Counted from the stretch's first letter, positions 56,138 to 63,737 are shown. The stretch is 64,000 nucleotides of DNA from Escherichia coli (GCF_050920415.1 NZ_CP169309.1), one strand, 5' to 3'. Notes: a model not told the origin generated them from the sequence alone. Numbers and translations are program-made.

Positions 56138-56962
56138 ATGAGCAGCAAGCTTCATGGTCTTGTCTGGGAAGGGTGCGCCTTCACCGGCATGATCTTATCC
56201 AGGGTGGCAGTAATGGCTCGCCTTGCAGACTACAGCAATGACGAAGGTGTGTCATGGCCTGCAGTGGAGACCATTCGTCGTCAGATTGGGGCAAAGAGTG
56301 AATCAACGGTTAAAGCGGCGATAGCGGAACTGGAAAAGAACGGCTGGCTGACGAAGGAGGAGCGTAAGGTCGGTGGGCGTAATGAAAGCAATATCTACCG
56401 CCTTAATGTGGAAAAACTCGAAGCAGCAGCTGAGGCGGCGCGTGAGGCATATAAACCGAAAAGAAAAATTAGCCCGGCAAAAAATGACCCGTTAACAGTT
56501 GACCAGTCAAATATTGCCCCCTCAACGGTTGACCCGTCAAATTTTGATGGATCAACCGTTGGTAAAAAACAGCCGGTTAGGGGGGCGATGGTTGGCCCCG
56601 ATCCGTCAGTATTAAAACCTGATCCGTCAGATAAAAGATCTTTTCGTCCGGAAGCTTCGCAACCGGACCCGCAGACGGCTGAACAGGATTTTTTAACCCG
56701 ACATCCTGATGCGGTTGTGTTTAGTGCAAAAAAACGTCAGTGGGGAACTCAGGAGGATTTGGCATGCGCACAGTGGATCTGGGGGCGAATCGTGAGTCTT
56801 TACGAACAGGCCGCCAGCGATGATGGCGAGATCACCCGACCGAAAGAACCCAACTGGACAGCATGGGCCAATGACGTGCGCATAATGCGGATGCTGGATG
56901 GCAGAACTCACAGACAAATCTGTGAACCGCCCCGGGTTTCCTGGAGAGTGTTTTATCTGTGA
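56138..56962 (+). pseudogene. Phage replication-initiator (O-like, N-terminal winged-HTH) gene, 5' part; interrupted by an IS element after codon 261
   Basis: N-terminus ...AVMARLADYSNDEGVSWPAVETIRRQIGAKSESTVKAAIAELEKNGWL is typical of phage replisome-organiser proteins. The frame ends inside the IS inverted repeat; the original frame resumes at 58235 and stops at 58414. Confidence 0.65.
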
Positions 56963-56964
56963 AC

Positions 56965-57831
56965 TCAGGCTGCCAGATCATTGTTTCCGATGGAAGCATA
57001 ATAAGCTTTTTCTGCTTCTGCCGGAGGAGTATGGCCCAGCCTTCCCAGCAATCGTCGATTGTTATACCAGTCCACCCACGTGAGTGTGGCCAGTTCCACT
57101 TCTGCACGGTTTTTCCAGCTCTTACGGTGTATTACCTCCGCTTTGTAAAGACCATTGATGCTCTCAGCCATCGCGTTGTCATACGAGTCGCCTGTACTCC
57201 CTGTTGATGCCAGCAGTTTTGCTTCTTTTAGTCGCTCCGTATAGGCCAGTGACACATACTGAGAGCCTTTATCGCTGTGATGGATGGTGCCAGACGGACG
57301 ACGGGCCCACAACGCCTGCTCCAGCGCATCCAGCACGAATGTCGTTTCCATAGACGATGAGACCCGCCACCCCACGATGTATCCGGCAAACACATCAATG
57401 ATGAACGCCACATAGACGAAGCCCTGCCATGTGCTGACGTAAGTAAAATCAGCCACCCACAGCTGGTCAGGACGTTCTGCCACGAACTGACGGTTTACGC
57501 GGTCACCTGTGGCAACGGTTTTCCGGCTGACGGTAGTGCGGACCTTTTTACCCCGGAGAACACCGGCAAGTCCCATAACCGCCATGAGGCGCGCCACTGT
57601 ACATCTGGCCACCCTGATTCCTTCCCGTAACAACTGACGCCAGACTTTACGCACACCGTACACCTGATGATTTTCATCGTATACGCGCTGTATCTCTCTC
57701 TTCAGCCAGTCATCGCGCTGCGCACGGGCACTGCGTTTATCAGGATGATGCCGCTGCTGCTGACAATGGTAATACGTTGACGGGGCAATATGCAGTTCAC
57801 TGCATACCGGTCCGACCCCCGTACTGCTCAC
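56965..57831 (-). CDS. IS3-family transposase OrfB (DDE integrase core)
   Basis: DDE core ...LWVADFTYVSTWQGFVYVAFIIDVFAGYIVGW...HHSDKGSQY...DSYDNAMAESINGLYKAE. In this copy the body is in the same frame as orfA rather than the -1 frame. Confidence 0.85.
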   Translation of the reverse strand: MSSTGVGPVCSELHIAPSTYYHCQQQRHHPDKRSARAQRDDWLKREIQRVYDENHQVYGVRKVWRQLLREGIRVARCTVARLMAVMGLAGVLRGKKVRTTVSRKTVATGDRVNRQFVAERPDQLWVADFTYVSTWQGFVYVAFIIDVFAGYIVGWRVSSSMETTFVLDALEQALWARRPSGTIHHSDKGSQYVSLAYTERLKEAKLLASTGSTGDSYDNAMAESINGLYKAEVIHRKSWKNRAEVELATLTWVDWYNNRRLLGRLGHTPPAEAEKAYYASIGNNDLAA

Positions 57832-57852
57832 GCAGCTTATCCAGCAGTGGCA

Positions 57853-58179
57853 TTATTTTTTCCAGAGGCGGTCGAACTCCGCCTTCGCAAAATAAGCGGA
57901 AGCCTGGCGAAGGATATCGTTACTGCGGCGCAGTTCACGATTTTCACGTTCCAGCTCTTTCAGACGCTGACGTTCAGCGGTGGTGAGCCCACCATCACCG
58001 CTCCCGGTATCCCTCTCATGCTGGCGAACCCAGACACGCAGAGTCTCTGGCGTACAGCCAATCTTTGGAGCAATGGAACAAATTGCCGCCCATTGTGAGT
58101 CATATTCGCCCTGACTTTCCAGAACCATACGAACTGCGCGTTGACGGACTTCGGGGGAAAAACGAGTATTTTTAGTCAT
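57853..58179 (-). CDS. IS3-family transposase OrfA (HTH plus leucine zipper), 108 aa
   Basis: [57 protein letters not shown]...; ends WKK-stop at an A-rich run. Confidence 0.85.
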
Positions 58180-58234
58180 CCTGTTTACCTCTTTCTCAGG
58201 AAGTTTAGTCTCCAGGATTTCCGGGGCGGTTCAC

Positions 58235-58414
58235 TGCGAAATGTTTGGTCGGGTACAGCGGGATCCATTCTGGGTAAAAAACATCATGAGCCCGTCAAAA
58301 CTTCGCGATAAATGGGATGAGCTGGTTATCCGTCTGGGGCGTTCGCCTGTACAGCGTTGTGTGAATCATATTTCTGAACCTGACACCGAAATTCCACCAG
58401 GGTTCAGGGGGTAG
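58235..58414 (+). other. 3' remnant (59 codons) of the IS-interrupted phage replication gene
   Basis: Joining 56138..56922 to 58237.. (removing the IS and one CTG copy) restores a continuous frame ...RQICEMFGRVQRDPFWVKNIMSPSKLRDKWDELVIRLG... ending at TAG 58412-58414. Confidence 0.6.
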
Positions 58415-58454
58415 GTATTGATTTCAGATCATGAGGTAATTTTCAGGAGGACTT

Positions 58455-58877
58455 GTGGCAAAAGTTTTTACACAAGAAGAGCGGGAAAAAATTAAGGGAC
58501 AGGTTGTTGCACTCGTACGCCAGAGTGGGCGCGAGACGTTACGACAGCTGGAAGCTAAAACAGGTGCGACAAGATATCTGATTAGCGTTCTTGCCTGGGA
58601 GCTGGTTGCCAGTGGCGATGTATACAACTCTGGCTATGGGTTATTCCCGTCAGAACAGGCTCGTAAGGACTGGCAAAACGCCCGCAAAAAACTATCGAGG
58701 GCAAAGGGGAAGAAACCGTCTATGGTTGATCCGGACCTTATCTGGTCATTACCTGACGGAGAAATTCGTCGCTACGATAGTCGCCATAACATGGTTTGTC
58801 GCGAGTGTCTGGAAAGTGAAGTAATGCAGCGAGTGTTGGCATTTTATCAGGGAAATGTTCGCTATTTATTGAAGTGA
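58455..58877 (+). CDS. Hypothetical prophage protein (140 aa)
   Basis: GTG-start ORF after the replication gene; no recognisable family. Confidence 0.4.
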   Translation: MAKVFTQEEREKIKGQVVALVRQSGRETLRQLEAKTGATRYLISVLAWELVASGDVYNSGYGLFPSEQARKDWQNARKKLSRAKGKKPSMVDPDLIWSLPDGEIRRYDSRHNMVCRECLESEVMQRVLAFYQGNVRYLLK

Positions 58878-59341
58878 CGAGATTAAAGAGCATTAATACA
58901 TATGTGAATTGACATTTCTGTGGCACAGGGCTAGAACTATTCTCATTGTCAGCGTTGTGCCAGAGTCTGATGTTTGTTGTACATTTGGACGAATAGACGG
59001 CGTTGTTAACTTTAAAAATAACACAGGAACACTTTGAGAAAGTGAACAGGCGTATTTATTTTTTGCTGATGAAGGAGAGTAACTTTAATTTGGGTAATTA
59101 GATTGATAATAGGCCAGACGAAAATAACATTCTGGCACACTTTTGGTCGCTACAGTCATTAGTTAATTTTAAGTGATAAATTTTTATCCATAAGTTAACA
59201 CTAGTGTGTCATCTAGCGAAACCGAATCGCTTTAATCCATAACTTAAAGTTGAATCAGTGGGGTAGCAGTAGGTATGCCGGAACTGATAAACTGTGCAGA
59301 AGGCTAAACATTCATTCACTCGTGAGATAGTAGCATAAATT

Positions 59342-59686
59342 ATGCAAAGAATTATTCCTGATAAAAATTGGTGGGAAAAAGAGCGTATTAATCGTAAAGC
59401 ATCATCAAAATGCCCATATGCTAGTTCATACAGATGTCCTCGGTACTATCAGAGTGTAGTTTTGCTCTCAAGCATCAATATGATAGCTGGTATGGCAACT
59501 AGGAAAGAAAAAGAGTTGGGCGAATTTGGGGAAAGAACTAGTTTCTCATATTTATGTGATGAAGAAGTCCCAACAGTTACTACAAAAGAATATGGCGGCC
59601 TTGCATCAGTTAGTAATTTTTGCCCAGAAATATCATTTAGATATTTACACTATTACGCCGATTATATGTGTAAATATGTTGATTAG
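59342..59686 (+). CDS. Hypothetical Cys-rich small protein (114 aa) in the AT-rich cargo island
   Basis: ORF in AT-rich DNA, 70 bp upstream of the HEPN-like gene on the same strand; several Cys in CP/CD contexts; weak RBS. Confidence 0.35.
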   Translation: MQRIIPDKNWWEKERINRKASSKCPYASSYRCPRYYQSVVLLSSINMIAGMATRKEKELGEFGERTSFSYLCDEEVPTVTTKEYGGLASVSNFCPEISFRYLHYYADYMCKYVD

Positions 59687-59755
59687 ATAGATCAGGATAC
59701 TGGCAGGCGTAGTGCGGAAAAAGATAATTTAGAAAATGATTGGAAATATACATGG

Positions 59756-60208
59756 ATGTCAGTCAATCCTAAATTTTATTTAGATTGCGATGTTTTTGAA
59801 AGTGTCAAAAACTTCAATGAAGAATTGGCTAGTGATTACTTAAAGAGATTGCATCCAAATATCATTCAGCAAATAGATAGAATGAATAATTGCTTGGATA
59901 ATAATGACCCTGCGGGTGCACTGCACGCAGCCTCTAATATTCTAGAAACTATGGCGAAGGAAATCACTCAAAACCCGAATGTGGCAAATGAGTCATTGGG
60001 TGGTTTTTTTAAACAGTTCGAAAAAATGTCAAAATTACCTAAGAATCTTATTGATATTGTTAAAGATATTTATGATTTACGCAACAAACTACCTACTGCT
60101 GGACACGGAAGCTTGAACAGGCCTGAATTAACTATGGTAGAAGCTATAACTATTGCGGCAATGACAAAGGCGATTTTAGAAATTGAATATCGAAGCAAAG
60201 CCATCTAA
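59756..60208 (+). CDS. Abi_C / HEPN-like abortive-infection-type protein (150 aa)
   Basis: C-terminal motif DLRNKLPTAGHGSLNRPE fits the R-N-x(n)-H-G signature of Abi_C/HEPN domains; AT-rich codon usage. Confidence 0.4.
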   Translation: MSVNPKFYLDCDVFESVKNFNEELASDYLKRLHPNIIQQIDRMNNCLDNNDPAGALHAASNILETMAKEITQNPNVANESLGGFFKQFEKMSKLPKNLIDIVKDIYDLRNKLPTAGHGSLNRPELTMVEAITIAAMTKAILEIEYRSKAI

Positions 60209-60702
60209 CAAACATAAATTATGTGGTTCAAATTCCCGCTATACTTCTGTGTTATTGCCGCCAGCGTCTACTTATCGCTGTGAGTTCAACGGGGCGATGA
60301 TGCGTTAGAGATCTCTGAATCGATTGAAGTCTAAGGTTGTCAGGGCTGTAACAGTAGCCCTGTGTCATGAAAGGATTGCATATTAATTAACGAAGAACAG
60401 ACCAATAGCATTGATAGTTGTTTTCAAAAATAGACCAATAACAAACACGACTGGCCATCTCATCGATTTTCGACAGTATGCAGAAATGGGCGGGATCCAC
60501 ACGCAGTACCAGCTTGCTAAGATAAACGAAAAGGAGACTTTAACCAGTCAGTGGCTGCATGCTGATGGTGATCCGCTATGGGCCGTAGATGTTGTTTGAT
60601 GTACGCAGAAAGAGACGACGAAGGGCACTATGCCGAAAACTAAATCGGTTTTAGAGATTAACCGCGCTGGTGAGCTGGAGTGATTGACTTTTAGAACGCC
60701 AG

Positions 60703-60732
60703 AAAGCAAAAACCTCACAATCGAGTGAGGTT
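60703..60732 (-). terminator. Candidate terminator after the kinase-partner operon (AACCTCAC-loop-GTGAGGTT)
   Basis: Perfect 8-bp stem; U-rich flank on the minus strand; lies 15 bp downstream of the 208-aa gene stop. Confidence 0.45.
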
Positions 60733-60746
60733 TTGTTAAGGGCTTA

Positions 60747-61373
60747 CTATTTTTTGGCAATTAGTGCATGCATCGCCATTTCATGACCTTTTCTGCGAAG
60801 TTTTTTCACACGGGGCTTGAGCCTAGTGAAAGAACTTGGGCTAATTGTCGACTCAGCTTCAACTATATCATTGCGGGGAGCACCCGTTTTAGCATCTTCA
60901 TAGCGGATAAGTATTTTAAACGTGCCCTCATCAACTCCGACACCTTGCAAGTGATGAAGTTTAGATGAAACAGCACCGATTAAATAATCATGAATTCCTT
61001 GCAGGCCCGTTTTACCGATTGGTGAATAGGTATGCAACATATTTGCACCTACAGGAAGGAACTGGCGAAAGTCAGGAACATGCATCTTGTTAACTTCAAC
61101 AGAAGTGTATGCTTTCATGTCAAAAGAAACTCCAGGTTTCCGTGCATTGACTTCTAGCCATTGAGGCAAATCGAGAATATATTTGCTCTCAGCAGTTACT
61201 TCCAGTTTCTTCCTAGACGATAATGTCACGTCCATTACCTGAGCCATATCAGCCATAGAAAGCTCAGCGGCCTTCCGGTTGATGGCTTGTACCCGCTCGC
61301 TCACGTTAGGTCCGAATGCATCGAACAACGAAATTTCAGCAGCTGGTTTAATGGCTTCAGTTTTAACAGACAT
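60747..61373 (-). CDS. Hypothetical protein (208 aa), translationally coupled partner of the P-loop kinase
   Basis: AAGGAG Shine-Dalgarno 5-6 nt upstream of ATG 61371-61373, directly after the kinase stop; no family recognised (track ORF starts at GTG 61379). Confidence 0.5.
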   Translation of the reverse strand: MSVKTEAIKPAAEISLFDAFGPNVSERVQAINRKAAELSMADMAQVMDVTLSSRKKLEVTAESKYILDLPQWLEVNARKPGVSFDMKAYTSVEVNKMHVPDFRQFLPVGANMLHTYSPIGKTGLQGIHDYLIGAVSSKLHHLQGVGVDEGTFKILIRYEDAKTGAPRNDIVEAESTISPSSFTRLKPRVKKLRRKGHEMAMHALIAKK

Positions 61374-61398
61374 ATACACTCCTTAGATAGGACACTTA

Positions 61399-62097
61399 TT
61401 ATACACCTAAATGCGCTAGATCGCTAACGTCTGAATATGGGCAGCTATGGGAGGTAGTCCAGTTTTCAAGGGTCACGTTAGGAGTATAGTCGACCACGAA
61501 CTGACCATCATTTTCAGGATCTTCCCGTCGATGATAAACATTGAGTGTAAATAGGCCTGCATATTTCGCGAGCATATGTTCAATGGTCTCTCTGCTCTTG
61601 AAAAAGTTCGCTTTAAGAACCTCTAACGGAACCTTACGAGAGCGGGCTTGGGCAAAAACCCACGCGTAAGCCGGATCAAAATAGACGTAATTCAGTGCTA
61701 CCTGATAACCAGCCTTCAGGGCCAGATCAAAGTTTCTCTCCGCAATACCTATACTGGAGAAAGTAGAGTCCATAACAATGGGATAGCCTTCAGATAGCGC
61801 TTTTTTGTAGATAAAATCGACCATTCTGGAGGCAGGTCTCTGATAGTCCACAGAGTTCTCTTCATTGTAGTAGGGGAACCACCAGCGAAAATCATCAGCA
61901 TCAATTCGAACAATGTTTGTGATGCCATGTTGTTCTAAAAGACGATTTAAGAGCTCGGTTTTACCTGCAGCAGGCGAACCAGCCATAAACAGGACGTGCT
62001 TGGCATTGGCATTTTTGTTTGCTGTTACGTAACTATAAACGTAAGGGCGAATTGCCTCACCAAACTCAGGCAGTATGGTTTCAAGTTCTTTTTTCAT
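61399..62097 (-). CDS. P-loop kinase of the zeta-toxin / polynucleotide-kinase superfamily (232 aa)
   Basis: Walker A MAGSPAAGKTEL followed by IVRIDADDFR (compare zeta toxin GGQPGSGKTS...VIVIDNDTFK and T4 Pnk GCPGSGKST...NRDDYR), then IVMDSTFSS and ALKAGYQVALNYVYFDP. Confidence 0.55.
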   Translation of the reverse strand: MKKELETILPEFGEAIRPYVYSYVTANKNANAKHVLFMAGSPAAGKTELLNRLLEQHGITNIVRIDADDFRWWFPYYNEENSVDYQRPASRMVDFIYKKALSEGYPIVMDSTFSSIGIAERNFDLALKAGYQVALNYVYFDPAYAWVFAQARSRKVPLEVLKANFFKSRETIEHMLAKYAGLFTLNVYHRREDPENDGQFVVDYTPNVTLENWTTSHSCPYSDVSDLAHLGV

Positions 62098-62261
62098 CGG
62101 TAAATCATGCCGTGGTAGTTTTAGTTTTATTTAACAATATCATAAACGTTTAAAGATGGTTACAAATTAGCTAGATTTGTGAGCGCTTTAACCTCTAAAA
62201 CCCTCTGGAACCCAATACCGCTTTTCTGGCTGTCTTTTCAATACGGCATCCAGCGCATCAC

Positions 62262-62600
62262 TTACTCGGTCTGTATGCGGTTCATTGCTGAAGTCGCCAG
62301 TTGCGGGTAAATCTGCATCTCTGCGCCGTTTAAGATTCGCGTATTTACGCGCAAGCGCTCGATGGCTTCATTTTGCTGGTGGCTTTCCTTCCTCGCGGCT
62401 ATTCTAGCTATCTGATTGGCTGCTATGGCCTTTGCCGCTGTCATGGAATGCGCCAGAGTCTTATCCGTCATCATTACACGCTGCGTTTCCAGCATGCTGG
62501 AATGATCTCTTTTTGTTGTTCTTGAAGAAGAACTCTTATTCTTCGGTATATCATTTTGACAGGGGGCAGTGTAAGTATCCCTGCAAAACGAACCATTCAC
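62262..62600 (-). CDS. Hypothetical small protein (77-112 aa), upstream of the kinase operon
   Basis: ORF with possible internal start MLETQRVMMTDKTLAHSMTAAKAIAANQIARIAARKE...; helical and basic; 164 bp upstream of the kinase gene. Confidence 0.3.
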   Translation of the reverse strand: MNGSFCRDTYTAPCQNDIPKNKSSSSRTTKRDHSSMLETQRVMMTDKTLAHSMTAAKAIAANQIARIAARKESHQQNEAIERLRVNTRILNGAEMQIYPQLATSAMNRIQTE

Positions 62601-62821
62601 TTTAACAGATATGTCAATTTCCGCTCATCGTTCAAAGCGGACTAGAAGGTTAGCTTGCGTCGGACTTGGCGTTTTTAAAGAAGTGCTGGTGGTGACTGGT
62701 TGTTGTGTTCCATTTCTACAGAACAAAATCACAGAAACTATTCCCAATAGTTTTATTGAATCAATGATGAGACAGCCTCATATTTATCAGGACTGGTGTA
62801 CGTCCAATACAGGAGGTTGTC

Positions 62822-62911
62822 GTGCTGGTTCTCAAATGTGCGCTCGCTATTGCGGCTGTAATGGCAATTTATTGTCTTGCTGTTGTTCTTATGGATCGCC
62901 TTTCTGATTGA
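62822..62911 (+). CDS. 29-aa hydrophobic peptide (MLVLKCALAIAAVMAIYCLAVVLMDRLSD) with perfect Shine-Dalgarno; candidate small membrane/type-I-toxin-like peptide
   Basis: AGGAGG at 62811-62816, 5-nt spacer, GTG start at 62822; single predicted TM helix with polar tail; 210 bp upstream of hok. Confidence 0.4.
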   Translation: MLVLKCALAIAAVMAIYCLAVVLMDRLSD

Positions 62912-63122
62912 TTTTATATTGGCGAGGTGACGGGAGTTAAGTAGGATTGCTGCGGGTGCTTGAGGCTATCTGTCTCAGGCATGAATACCAACGGCAGATA
63001 GAGAAAAGCCCCAGTTAACATTACGCGTCCTGCAAGACGCCTAACATTAATCTGAGGCCATATCTATGACTTGCACACGTAGGTTAGCCTCTTACGTGCC
63101 GAAAGGCAAGGAGAAGCAGGCT

Positions 63123-63353
63123 ATGAAGCAGCATAAGGCGATGTTAATCGCCCTGATTGTCATCTGTTTAACTGTCATTGTGACGGCACTGGTAACGAGG
63201 AAAGATCTCTGTGAGGTACGAATCCGAACCAGCCAAACGGAGGTCGCTGTCTTCACAGCTTACGAACCTGAGGAGTTAGAGACCAGGCGAGGGAGAAATC
63301 CCTCGCCACCTCTGATGAGTCAGGCATCCTCAATGCACCCACACTTAACTTGA
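63123..63353 (+). CDS. Hok/Gef-family type I toxin homologue with a 25-codon C-terminal extension (76 codons to the first stop)
   Basis: MKQHKAMLIALIVICLTVIVTALVTRKDLCEVRIRTSQTEVAVFTAYEPEE aligns with Hok (...[24 protein letters not shown]...). After ...EPEE the next codon is TTA (Leu) and the frame runs to 63353. Confidence 0.75.
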   Translation: MKQHKAMLIALIVICLTVIVTALVTRKDLCEVRIRTSQTEVAVFTAYEPEELETRRGRNPSPPLMSQASSMHPHLT

Positions 63354-63737
63354 TTCGGCGGGTTTATTTTATCTGTAAATATTTTTATAAAAATAATGCC
63401 CACACACAGCATAAAACAAAAAGTATCACAGATAAAAAAGGAGCGTAATGTGCAGATTTGTTGTTTTCCATATTTACTCGCTTTAACATAATCAATATTG
63501 ATATGGTTGTTATTTCGGTGGTTTCAAACGAGATATTATGGTGATCTGGCAAATTTGCATAACATTAAAATTTAATTTATCTAATCGCTTTTAATAATAA
63601 GCGTTGTGTTTTATCCCAGCAATCTGTTGTTTGATTTTTATTTCATTAATGTAGGGGCTTTACACTGGAACCAGTTTATTTATACTTTATACGCCAGCCT
63701 GAACAACTGGCACCTGCTGCGCCAGCAGAGACAACCG

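Follow-up and report, generated by a model that had tools for sequence, protein, structure and literature searches.

What occupies the AT-rich interval between the replication genes and the hok-family gene of an Escherichia coli prophage, and how is this DNA related to the relBE module of the Qin prophage of E. coli K-12? This question was raised for positions 58878-62911 of a 64,000-nucleotide stretch of the E. coli sequence NZ_CP169309.1 (GCF_050920415.1), which is referred to as the window. An initial annotation had described the interval as one cargo island of five to six open reading frames (ORFs) on both strands, comprising an HEPN-like cassette, a kinase operon, a small helical protein and a 29-amino-acid peptide. 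In the present analysis, the sampled genomes were found to share conserved flanks with differing contents in between. The interval is hence a variable slot in lambdoid prophages of the Rac/Qin type, with a DUF977/Ren-like gene on its left and the hok/sok locus on its right. It is considered probable that an accessory or defense slot has been filled here by a mosaic of two cassettes, and that its intact cargo, a kinase of the Zeta_toxin family together with a partner protein, represents a candidate toxin-antitoxin or abortive-infection pair.

Variable Content of the Slot in the E. coli Population

The population comparison was performed with 5,426 complete E. coli genomes. A megablast search with positions 58400-63500 gave at least a partial match in 5,086 of them, in which the DUF977 and hok flanks are matched, and a match to 80% or more of the query in 7. 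These 7 genomes contain the complete cargo (58878-62650) with an identity of 99.5-100%. Due to this rarity and the abnormal base composition described below, the genes are not conserved core genes of the prophage, in agreement with the initial annotation.

Alternative cargoes were surveyed in an evenly spaced sample of 30 ranked records. The sampled records retain the DUF977 gene and hokD and carry different genes between them, which amount to at least nine other cargo sets. The DUF977/Ren-like anchor of the window is 84-91% identical to that of prophages holding other cargo. Among the alternative cargoes are a RelA/SpoT-domain protein, a DUF5677 protein, QueH, an alpha/beta hydrolase and a methyltransferase, furthermore an sce7726 protein accompanied by 'beta family' proteins, as well as sets of small proteins with DUF7167. 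PADLOC assigned the sce7726 protein to 'cll' and its neighbor to 'PD-Lambda-2_C', both of which are components of systems from functional and P4-hotspot screens, and the RelA/SpoT protein to the candidate system PDC-S33 (E 5e-119). The DUF5677, alpha/beta hydrolase and QueH cargoes were without a PADLOC match. In Klebsiella pneumoniae CP021955 (locus L006, 7232-9136), genes similar to AriA/AriB of the PARIS system, as recognized by PADLOC, directly adjoin the kinase-partner pair. The equivalent slot of this lambdoid prophage lies between lambda-P-like replication genes and DUF968/Q. The slot mixes recognized defense genes with genes of unknown function, like the hotspots of P2 and P4.

The genes relB and relE are absent from the window, whereas in K-12 Qin they are contiguous with hokD and located directly upstream of it, both as initially described. 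The relBE arrangement was found in 1,154 of the 5,426 genomes, always together with flxA-ydfV; apart from these flxA-ydfV-relBE-hokD genomes, the others have only hokD in common with the K-12 arrangement. In K-12 Qin the DUF977 anchor is lost, and the homology to the window begins only at 63109. The proposed replacement of relBE by another gene set is thus correct in so far as the cargo is an alternative neighbor of hokD, but it is not an allelic swap between identical flanks, because K-12 Qin lacks DUF977.

Composition and Borders of the Island

The guanine-cytosine (GC) content is 0.411 for 58878-62911 and 0.409 for the island-specific part (58967-62618), compared to 0.494 ± 0.019 with a minimum of 0.450 for windows of equal size elsewhere in the 64 kb. 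The AT-richness claimed in the initial annotation is therefore real, and the 3.65 kb of 58967-62618 have the lowest GC content anywhere in the window. The ORFs listed there are present as well, at 59342-59686 (+), 59756-60208 (+), 60747-61373 (-), 61399-62097 (-), 62262-62495/62600 (-) and 62822-62911 (+), and none of them matches a structural or lysis family in PHROGs.

The borders of the variable DNA were determined by pairwise blastn against prophages with other cargo. The left edge lies somewhere in 58846-58966. The right edge lies at 62619/62620 in two variants and in 62881-62942 in four others. Variable DNA is thus present as claimed, but its extent up to 62911 is too large, since it ends at 62618/62619 and 62619-62953 is a flank common to other cargo variants.

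A 15-nt inverted repeat with the consensus AATTGACAT[T/A]TCTGT encloses this DNA. Its arms are identical at 14 of 15 positions and contain TTGACA, they are the only two matches in the window (0.02 expected), and both are kept in every island copy that was retrieved. A diverged copy of the left arm is present in the loci L030, L031, and L035. The repeat may represent paired promoters, the footprint of a recombination event or a mere coincidence. A search for transfer RNA (tRNA) genes or attachment (att) sites found no tRNA at the island borders. In a search for RNA families sok alone was found; an rnk-leader match of 27.6 bits is below the gathering score of 55 and overlaps a terminator-like hairpin. 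The promoter scan was uninformative, with 13 sites versus 11.5 expected.

A Mosaic of Two Cassettes

In blastn comparisons, a P2-like locus (L002) is homologous to 58955-60446 and the Klebsiella locus (L006) to 60447-62348, without gap or overlap. The AT-richness is also uneven, with a GC content of 0.361 in 58955-60446 versus 0.440 in 60447-62348. The former is the 1.5-kb stretch with the lowest GC content, the minimum elsewhere in the 64 kb being 0.418. These abutting homologies, together with the differing GC content, argue for a mosaic island, in which two unrelated cassettes that circulate independently meet at 60446/60447; they are referred to as cassettes A and B. The cassette A unit also occurs beside the portal gene, in the hotspot of P2-like prophages. 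Close copies of cassette A or B were not found in deposited phage genomes, and plasmids yielded only two near-full-length relatives of the kinase. Of the single island proposed initially, the variable DNA remains; it consists of two cassettes, and the kinase pair is its only intact cargo.

The Zeta-Family Kinase and Its Partner in Cassette B

The sole sequence relatives of the kinase in the PDB are PezT (2p5t, E 1.4e-10) and zeta (1gvn, E 3e-4). Its Walker A motif GSPAAGKT aligns with GQPGSGKT of zeta, which includes zeta K46, and the second aspartate of R-I-D-A-D aligns with the catalytic aspartate (zeta D67) in I-D-N-D of zeta and with I-D-G-D of PezT. The NCBIfam equivalog model of PezT scores 39.6 bits at a cut-off of 470; the kinase is a member of the family and not a PezT orthologue. 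Further matches were to the PHROG annotations 'ATPase' and 'polynucleotide kinase' and, weakly, to the NCBIfam adenylyl-sulfate and uridine kinases.

The kinase gene is followed by the gene of the partner protein, which is preceded by a conserved ribosome-binding site. The two genes were adjacent with equal spacing in 10 of 10 loci examined, and the label 'kinase operon' of the initial annotation is borne out. The ten loci include lambdoid prophages of E. coli and Klebsiella, P1-like IMG/VR contigs (with Ref and a Ban-type helicase), a 210-kb Enterobacter plasmid and a Pectobacterium integrase islet. Across these loci the kinase is 84-96% and the partner 42-52% identical. Within the partner, the first 48 amino acids are 80-94% identical, the remainder 28-43%. 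By the Nei-Gojobori method, the ratio of nonsynonymous (dN) to synonymous (dS) substitutions is 0.06-0.08 for the kinase at a dS of about 1, and dN reaches 0.5-0.9 in the remainder of the partner. The dS in partner codons 1-48 (61230-61373) is 0.16-0.5, versus approximately 1.0-1.3 in the adjacent kinase, and the 25-nt spacer (61374-61398) is almost invariant across the loci. The low dS at the 5' end of the partner gene suggests a constraint on the nucleotide level or a recombination breakpoint near codon 48.

The partner consists of the conserved N-terminal 48 amino acids, a hypervariable middle and a C-terminal helix and beta-hairpin with a basic tail. The AlphaFold model has a predicted local distance difference test (pLDDT) value of 52, which is too poor for a fold search. 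It is mostly disordered, with helices at 24-46 and 124-145, a beta-hairpin at 153-172 and the basic tail; many antitoxins are disordered. No relative of the partner was found in Pfam, NCBIfam, PADLOC, PHROGs or the PDB, and its profile matched only 36 clusters among 1.84 billion representative proteins. A homology to the 217-amino-acid gene beside cassette A in P2 was considered and rejected (BLASTP E 0.11). Three proteins of 1,500-1,750 amino acids (P0134, P0140, and P0146) contain 5-9 repeated stretches that match the profile of the C-terminal helix and beta-hairpin (profile positions 133-181).

The pair is oriented opposite to the phage early genes, here and in Klebsiella, and this antisense orientation suggests that it may be expressed in the lysogen. 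The ORF upstream of the kinase (62262-62600), initially regarded as a cargo component encoding a small helical protein, turned out to be the truncated remnant of a longer gene. It aligns with 43% identity (E 3e-11) with residues 141-216 of a 271-amino-acid phrog_2418 protein, whose gene is located ahead of the kinase pair in a P1-like contig. The island border truncates the ORF, no counterpart lies upstream of the pair in the loci of Klebsiella, Enterobacter and Pectobacterium, and the family searches gave no match for it. Its interpretation as an epsilon/omega-like antitoxin or regulator was rejected, as it is a truncated fragment and absent in the relatives.

The Interrupted HEPN Gene of Cassette A

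The 114-amino-acid and 150-amino-acid ORFs of cassette A, which had been listed as two ORFs, are in the same frame, and their joint translation comprises 288 codons with a single stop, the TAG at 59684-59686. The P2-borne copy (96% nucleotide identity, protein WP_016569949) and the NCTC9064 copy (80% identical) are uninterrupted genes for 288 amino acids. The family comprises 40 clusters, all from Gammaproteobacteria and all annotated as 'hypothetical'. In the family alignment, the cysteines C24, C32, C94 and C149 and the motif D114-x-x-D117 are invariant, and E115 is nearly so. The TAG takes the place of this E115 within the D-E-I-D motif, and because of this position the HEPN gene of the island lineage is most likely dead through the amber codon. 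The exact 114- and 150-amino-acid products were found on roughly 100-700 contigs, some of them from Salmonella.

The C-terminal domain has a predicted four-helix up-and-down HEPN fold, as the initial label 'HEPN-like' implied. R247 and H255 are nearly invariant within L-R-N-x-L-P-T-A-G-H-G, which corresponds to Rx7H, one residue longer than the canonical Rx4-6H; this loop has a low pLDDT in the predicted structure. Foldseek against the PDB gave HEPN matches only, and the N-terminal domain with its four cysteines was without any match. Profile searches of the PDB sequences with the cassette A family and the partner family found nothing. The Pfam domain Abi_C (PF14355) matches weakly (independent E-value, i-E, 0.0032); among 29 family members none reaches E<=0.001 and 9 reach E<=0.1. 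The N-terminal domain recurs in proteins of the AlphaFold database (AFDB) described as TIR, HNH or helix-turn-helix (HTH) fusions, and Pseudomonas members of the family have an unrelated sequence in place of the C-terminal half. The N-terminal domain is read as a sensor or regulatory domain, since domains of similar structure occur in other proteins as fusions with TIR, HNH or HEPN modules.

Intact copies adjoin the Septu genes PtuA/PtuB in the P2 portal-side hotspot. A chromosomal island carries another intact copy, which is flanked by Lamassu LmuA/LmuB and Gabija GajA/GajB. A further one is located in a Salmonella prophage of the myovirus type, where it follows the genes of a small integrase and a 'GT4-conflict' glycosyltransferase as well as a DUF4145 gene. 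The cassette A gene is a candidate single-protein HEPN abortive-infection gene with swappable-effector architecture. Downstream of it, the sequence 60295-60375 corresponds to the 3' end of 'site-specific integrase' genes in approximately 600 E. coli genomes, often beside DUF4145 genes, and is a trace of an earlier neighborhood of cassette A.

Proposed Mechanism and Alternative Explanations

For toxicity, neutralization, trigger and substrate of the pair the following model is proposed. The kinase and its partner would form a type II toxin-antitoxin module with the toxin gene first. The conserved N-terminal ~48 residues of the partner would bind and neutralize the kinase, and the rapidly diverging remainder may set its stability or the specificity of the trigger. 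If the partner is lost or titrated, e.g., when another phage infects the cell or the element is lost, the kinase would be freed and would phosphorylate an essential nucleotide-sugar or nucleotide metabolite, leading to arrest or death of the cell. This could lead to abortive infection, to addiction to the prophage or plasmid, or to both. Zeta, PezT and ng_zeta1 poison essential nucleotide-sugar or nucleotide pools (PMC10532202). In a tentative extension, which we regard as possible but rather doubtful, the island would contain two undescribed immune modules. One would be a two-gene abortive-infection system of the zeta kinase and its hypervariable partner, in which the conserved N-terminus of the partner would keep the kinase inactive and the diversifying remainder would sense the phage. 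The other would be a new four-cysteine sensor domain, lacking a solved structural relative, which is joined to effectors of the HEPN, TIR or HNH type. The pair would then be a split analogue of fused toxin-antitoxin sensors, and the HEPN gene of the window a recently killed member of the second group.

Several points weigh against the proposed pair and its defense role. The toxin-first order is the reverse of epsilon-zeta and PezAT, and the partner resembles neither epsilon nor PezA. In the alignment with zeta, T118 is kept, E100 and E116 are each replaced by D, and R120 and T121 each by S; these five zeta residues were reportedly described by Mutschler et al. in 2011 as binding uridine diphosphate-N-acetylglucosamine (UDP-GlcNAc or UNAG), and the substrate of the kinase is therefore not to be assumed. 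The partner might also be this variable for no other reason than that a disordered linker is under relaxed constraint. The defense-system prediction proposed with the initial annotation was successful for several alternative cargoes but for no gene of the present one, as no island ORF has a PADLOC match at E<=0.01 (the full-length HEPN protein matches PDC-S32 with E 0.008). Literature searches found no toxicity, neutralization or anti-phage data for the cassette families. A survey of hok genes describes them as enriched in prophages and not near DefenseFinder systems (bioRxiv 10.1101/2025.08.07.668861). This last finding also suits an explanation in which cassette B is a plain addiction module without a role against incoming phages and the slot gathers selfish stabilizers, namely hok/sok, relBE and the zeta pair. 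The slot or its edge indeed holds hok/sok and, in K-12, relBE, and the pair is also located on large plasmids and P1-like phage-plasmid contigs, the classical setting of addiction. We consider this explanation possible, with less than even chances, as validated or candidate defense components occupy the same slot elsewhere, PARIS lies beside the pair in Klebsiella, and a fast-diverging partner region would be superfluous for simple addiction. The one role would not preclude the other.

It is unlikely that the kinase is no toxin and serves the prophage as a small-molecule, nucleotide or polynucleotide kinase, with the partner as its substrate, its regulator or an unrelated co-transcribed gene. 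The Zeta_toxin/AAA_33 fold is common to benign kinases, as the PHROG and NCBIfam matches illustrate, and the non-conserved R120 and T121 as well as the PezT score far under the cut-off are in line with such a function. However, PezT and zeta are by far the best matches, the strict two-gene linkage and the invariant coupling region extend across unrelated mobile elements, and the patchy and rare distribution is typical of toxin-antitoxin or defense modules and not of metabolic genes. Decay of the whole island as hitch-hiker DNA, without function in the present lysogen, would explain the TAG in the HEPN gene, the truncated upstream ORF and the integrase relic, and the prophage itself seems to be degrading, with a lost hok stop codon and an insertion sequence (IS) in the neighboring replication gene. 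We nevertheless judge such decay quite unlikely, because the ORFs of kinase and partner are intact and the kinase is under strong purifying selection. The near-identity of the island in the 7 complete genomes and the presence of its proteins on approximately 700 contigs further argue that it is young and spreading, not old and eroding. This young age would also account for the lack of further lesions in the split HEPN gene, which, together with the frequency of the split allele, might be taken as a sign that the two products act jointly or that the 150-amino-acid HEPN fragment acts alone. A function of the split gene is nonetheless highly improbable. Besides replacing E115, the TAG parts C149 from the other three cysteines, no Shine-Dalgarno sequence precedes the ATG at 59756, and all 29 aligned homologues from outside the lineage are single polypeptides.

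Comparison With Known Systems

The slot is best read as a prophage accessory/defense hotspot, which is a well-known kind of feature. As in the P2 and P4 hotspots (Rousset et al., 2022, PMC9122126; Vassallo et al., 2022, PMC9519451), conserved phage genes surround a short variable interval that includes known defense systems, and cassette A is literally common to the slot and the P2 portal-side hotspot described in PMC9519451. In contrast to these, the slot is located in Rac/Qin-type lambdoid prophages, is anchored by DUF977 and hok/sok, and carries candidate cargo only. The relBE-hokD arrangement of K-12 Qin is comparable as a toxin-antitoxin module beside hokD in a lambdoid prophage, without homology to the pair. 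No published description of the DUF977-hok slot was found in literature searches. Variable prophage slots are productive for new anti-phage systems, Rac/Qin-type lambdoid prophages are very common in E. coli, and DUF977 and hok/sok as markers make this slot systematically minable.

With epsilon-zeta and PezAT (PMC10532202) the kinase shares the Pfam family Zeta_toxin, the Walker A motif, the catalytic aspartate and the location on mobile elements. It differs from them by the downstream partner of 208 amino acids, which is unrelated to epsilon, PezA and the N-domain of EzeT, and by the changes in some UNAG-binding residues. An epsilon or PezA antitoxin is not encoded upstream, where the ORF is a fragment of the unrelated 271-amino-acid gene. 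Since an upstream antitoxin is missing and the partner is unrelated, the kinase is assigned to the Zeta_toxin family outside the epsilon-zeta and PezAT systems. In PMC10532202 upstream genes were screened for antitoxin candidates, and several 'orphan' zeta toxins were left without a cognate antitoxin; because of this screening of upstream genes, a kinase like that of cassette B is expected to be counted among the orphans. If the proposed model is true, the partner would supply such orphan zeta toxins with a neutralizing partner and possibly with a trigger. Literature searches yielded no study in which a zeta kinase is paired with a protein encoded downstream.

A kinase-first order is known from AvrRxo1-Arc1, in which a zeta-like kinase gene is followed by the gene of its inhibitor. 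AvrRxo1 is a secreted effector phosphorylating NAD, whereas its inhibitor is small and folded; the likeness concerns the described gene order. In CapRel-type fused toxin-antitoxin sensors, the toxin is restrained by an attached, fast-evolving neutralizing segment. The pair has no homology to CapRel, and a sensor role of the partner is suggested by its variability alone.

The HEPN protein of cassette A has an identity of approximately 10-13% with HepS of the Gifsy-1 prophage (PMC13043305), AbiV and LsoA/RnlA. From HepS and other single-protein HEPN nucleases it differs by the additional four-cysteine N-terminal domain, by R-N-x6-H in place of Rx4-6H and by being a pseudogene copy in the window. 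The cargo points to two families without annotation, Pfam model or solved relative, the kinase partner and the cysteine-rich domain.

Features of the Interval and the hok Flank

Table 1. Coordinates of the anchors, cassettes, genes and further features of the slot (positions of the window).
Feature	Position	Strand	Remarks
DUF977/Ren-like gene, 140 aa (left anchor)	58455-58877	+	Last conserved gene of the replication-side module; phrog_142 'Ren-like exclusion protein' E 7e-43; RefSeq DUF977
Inverted repeat, left arm, 15 nt	58907-58921	+	AATTGACATTTCTGT; intergenic after DUF977
Cassette A	58955-60446	+	Precisely this span is matched by NZ_CP025916 and other genomes with 95.8% identity
HEPN gene, 288 codons	59342-60208	+	4-Cys N-terminal and C-terminal HEPN domain; interrupted by an in-frame TAG
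Integrase relic, 81 bp	60295-60375	+	Last 40 nt of a ~200-aa tyrosine-recombinase gene (...VDDALEISESIEV, stop) and downstream hairpin
Cassette B (kinase-partner unit)	60447-62348	-	93.9% identical to the Klebsiella lambdoid prophage locus
Terminator-like hairpin past the partner gene	60709-60734	-	10-bp stem, then T run
Partner gene, 208 aa	60747-61373	-	Start 25 nt past the kinase stop, after a near-invariant AAGGAG within TAATAAGTGTCCGATTTAAGGAGTGCATATG
Zeta-toxin-family P-loop kinase, 232 aa	61399-62097	-	Pfam Zeta_toxin (PF06414) i-E 9.3e-29, residues 28-181; AAA_33 3.7e-12
5'-truncated remnant ('small helical protein')	62262-62600	-	RefSeq: 77 aa, 62262-62495
Inverted repeat, right arm, 15 nt	62605-62619	-	End is the exact right junction of the variable DNA
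Semi-conserved hok-upstream flank	62619-62953	+	Common to other-cargo prophages; homology of L030 and L035 begins at 62619/62620
Unannotated hydrophobic ORF, 29 aa	62822-62911	+	MLVLKCALAIAAVMAIYCLAVVLMDRLSD; AGGAGG 5 nt before the GTG start
hok/sok locus	62954-63353	+	hok ORF 63123-63353; Rfam sok RF01794; phrog_251, NCBIfam Hok

The 29-amino-acid ORF is conserved in two prophages with other cargo (L030 and L035) with four synonymous and two conservative changes and has no family match. It probably encodes a real small membrane protein. Its initial assignment to the cargo was rejected, as it is located in the conserved hok flank, which is common to other cargo variants.

The sok RNA (62954-63128) looks intact with a score of 108 bits. 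In the hok gene, codon 52 is TTA (63276-63278); residues 1-51 are present and the ORF is extended to 76 amino acids, whereas hokD of other strains ends after 51 amino acids. RefSeq flags an identical hok copy in NZ_CP169399 as a pseudogene.

On the replication side, an IS3-family element (56927-58233) with orfA (108 amino acids), orfB (288 amino acids) and the terminal repeats TGAACCGCCCCGGG... splits a replication-initiator-like helix-turn-helix gene (56138-56962 and the remainder to 58414). In NZ_CP169399, whose prophage is otherwise identical, this gene is uninterrupted.

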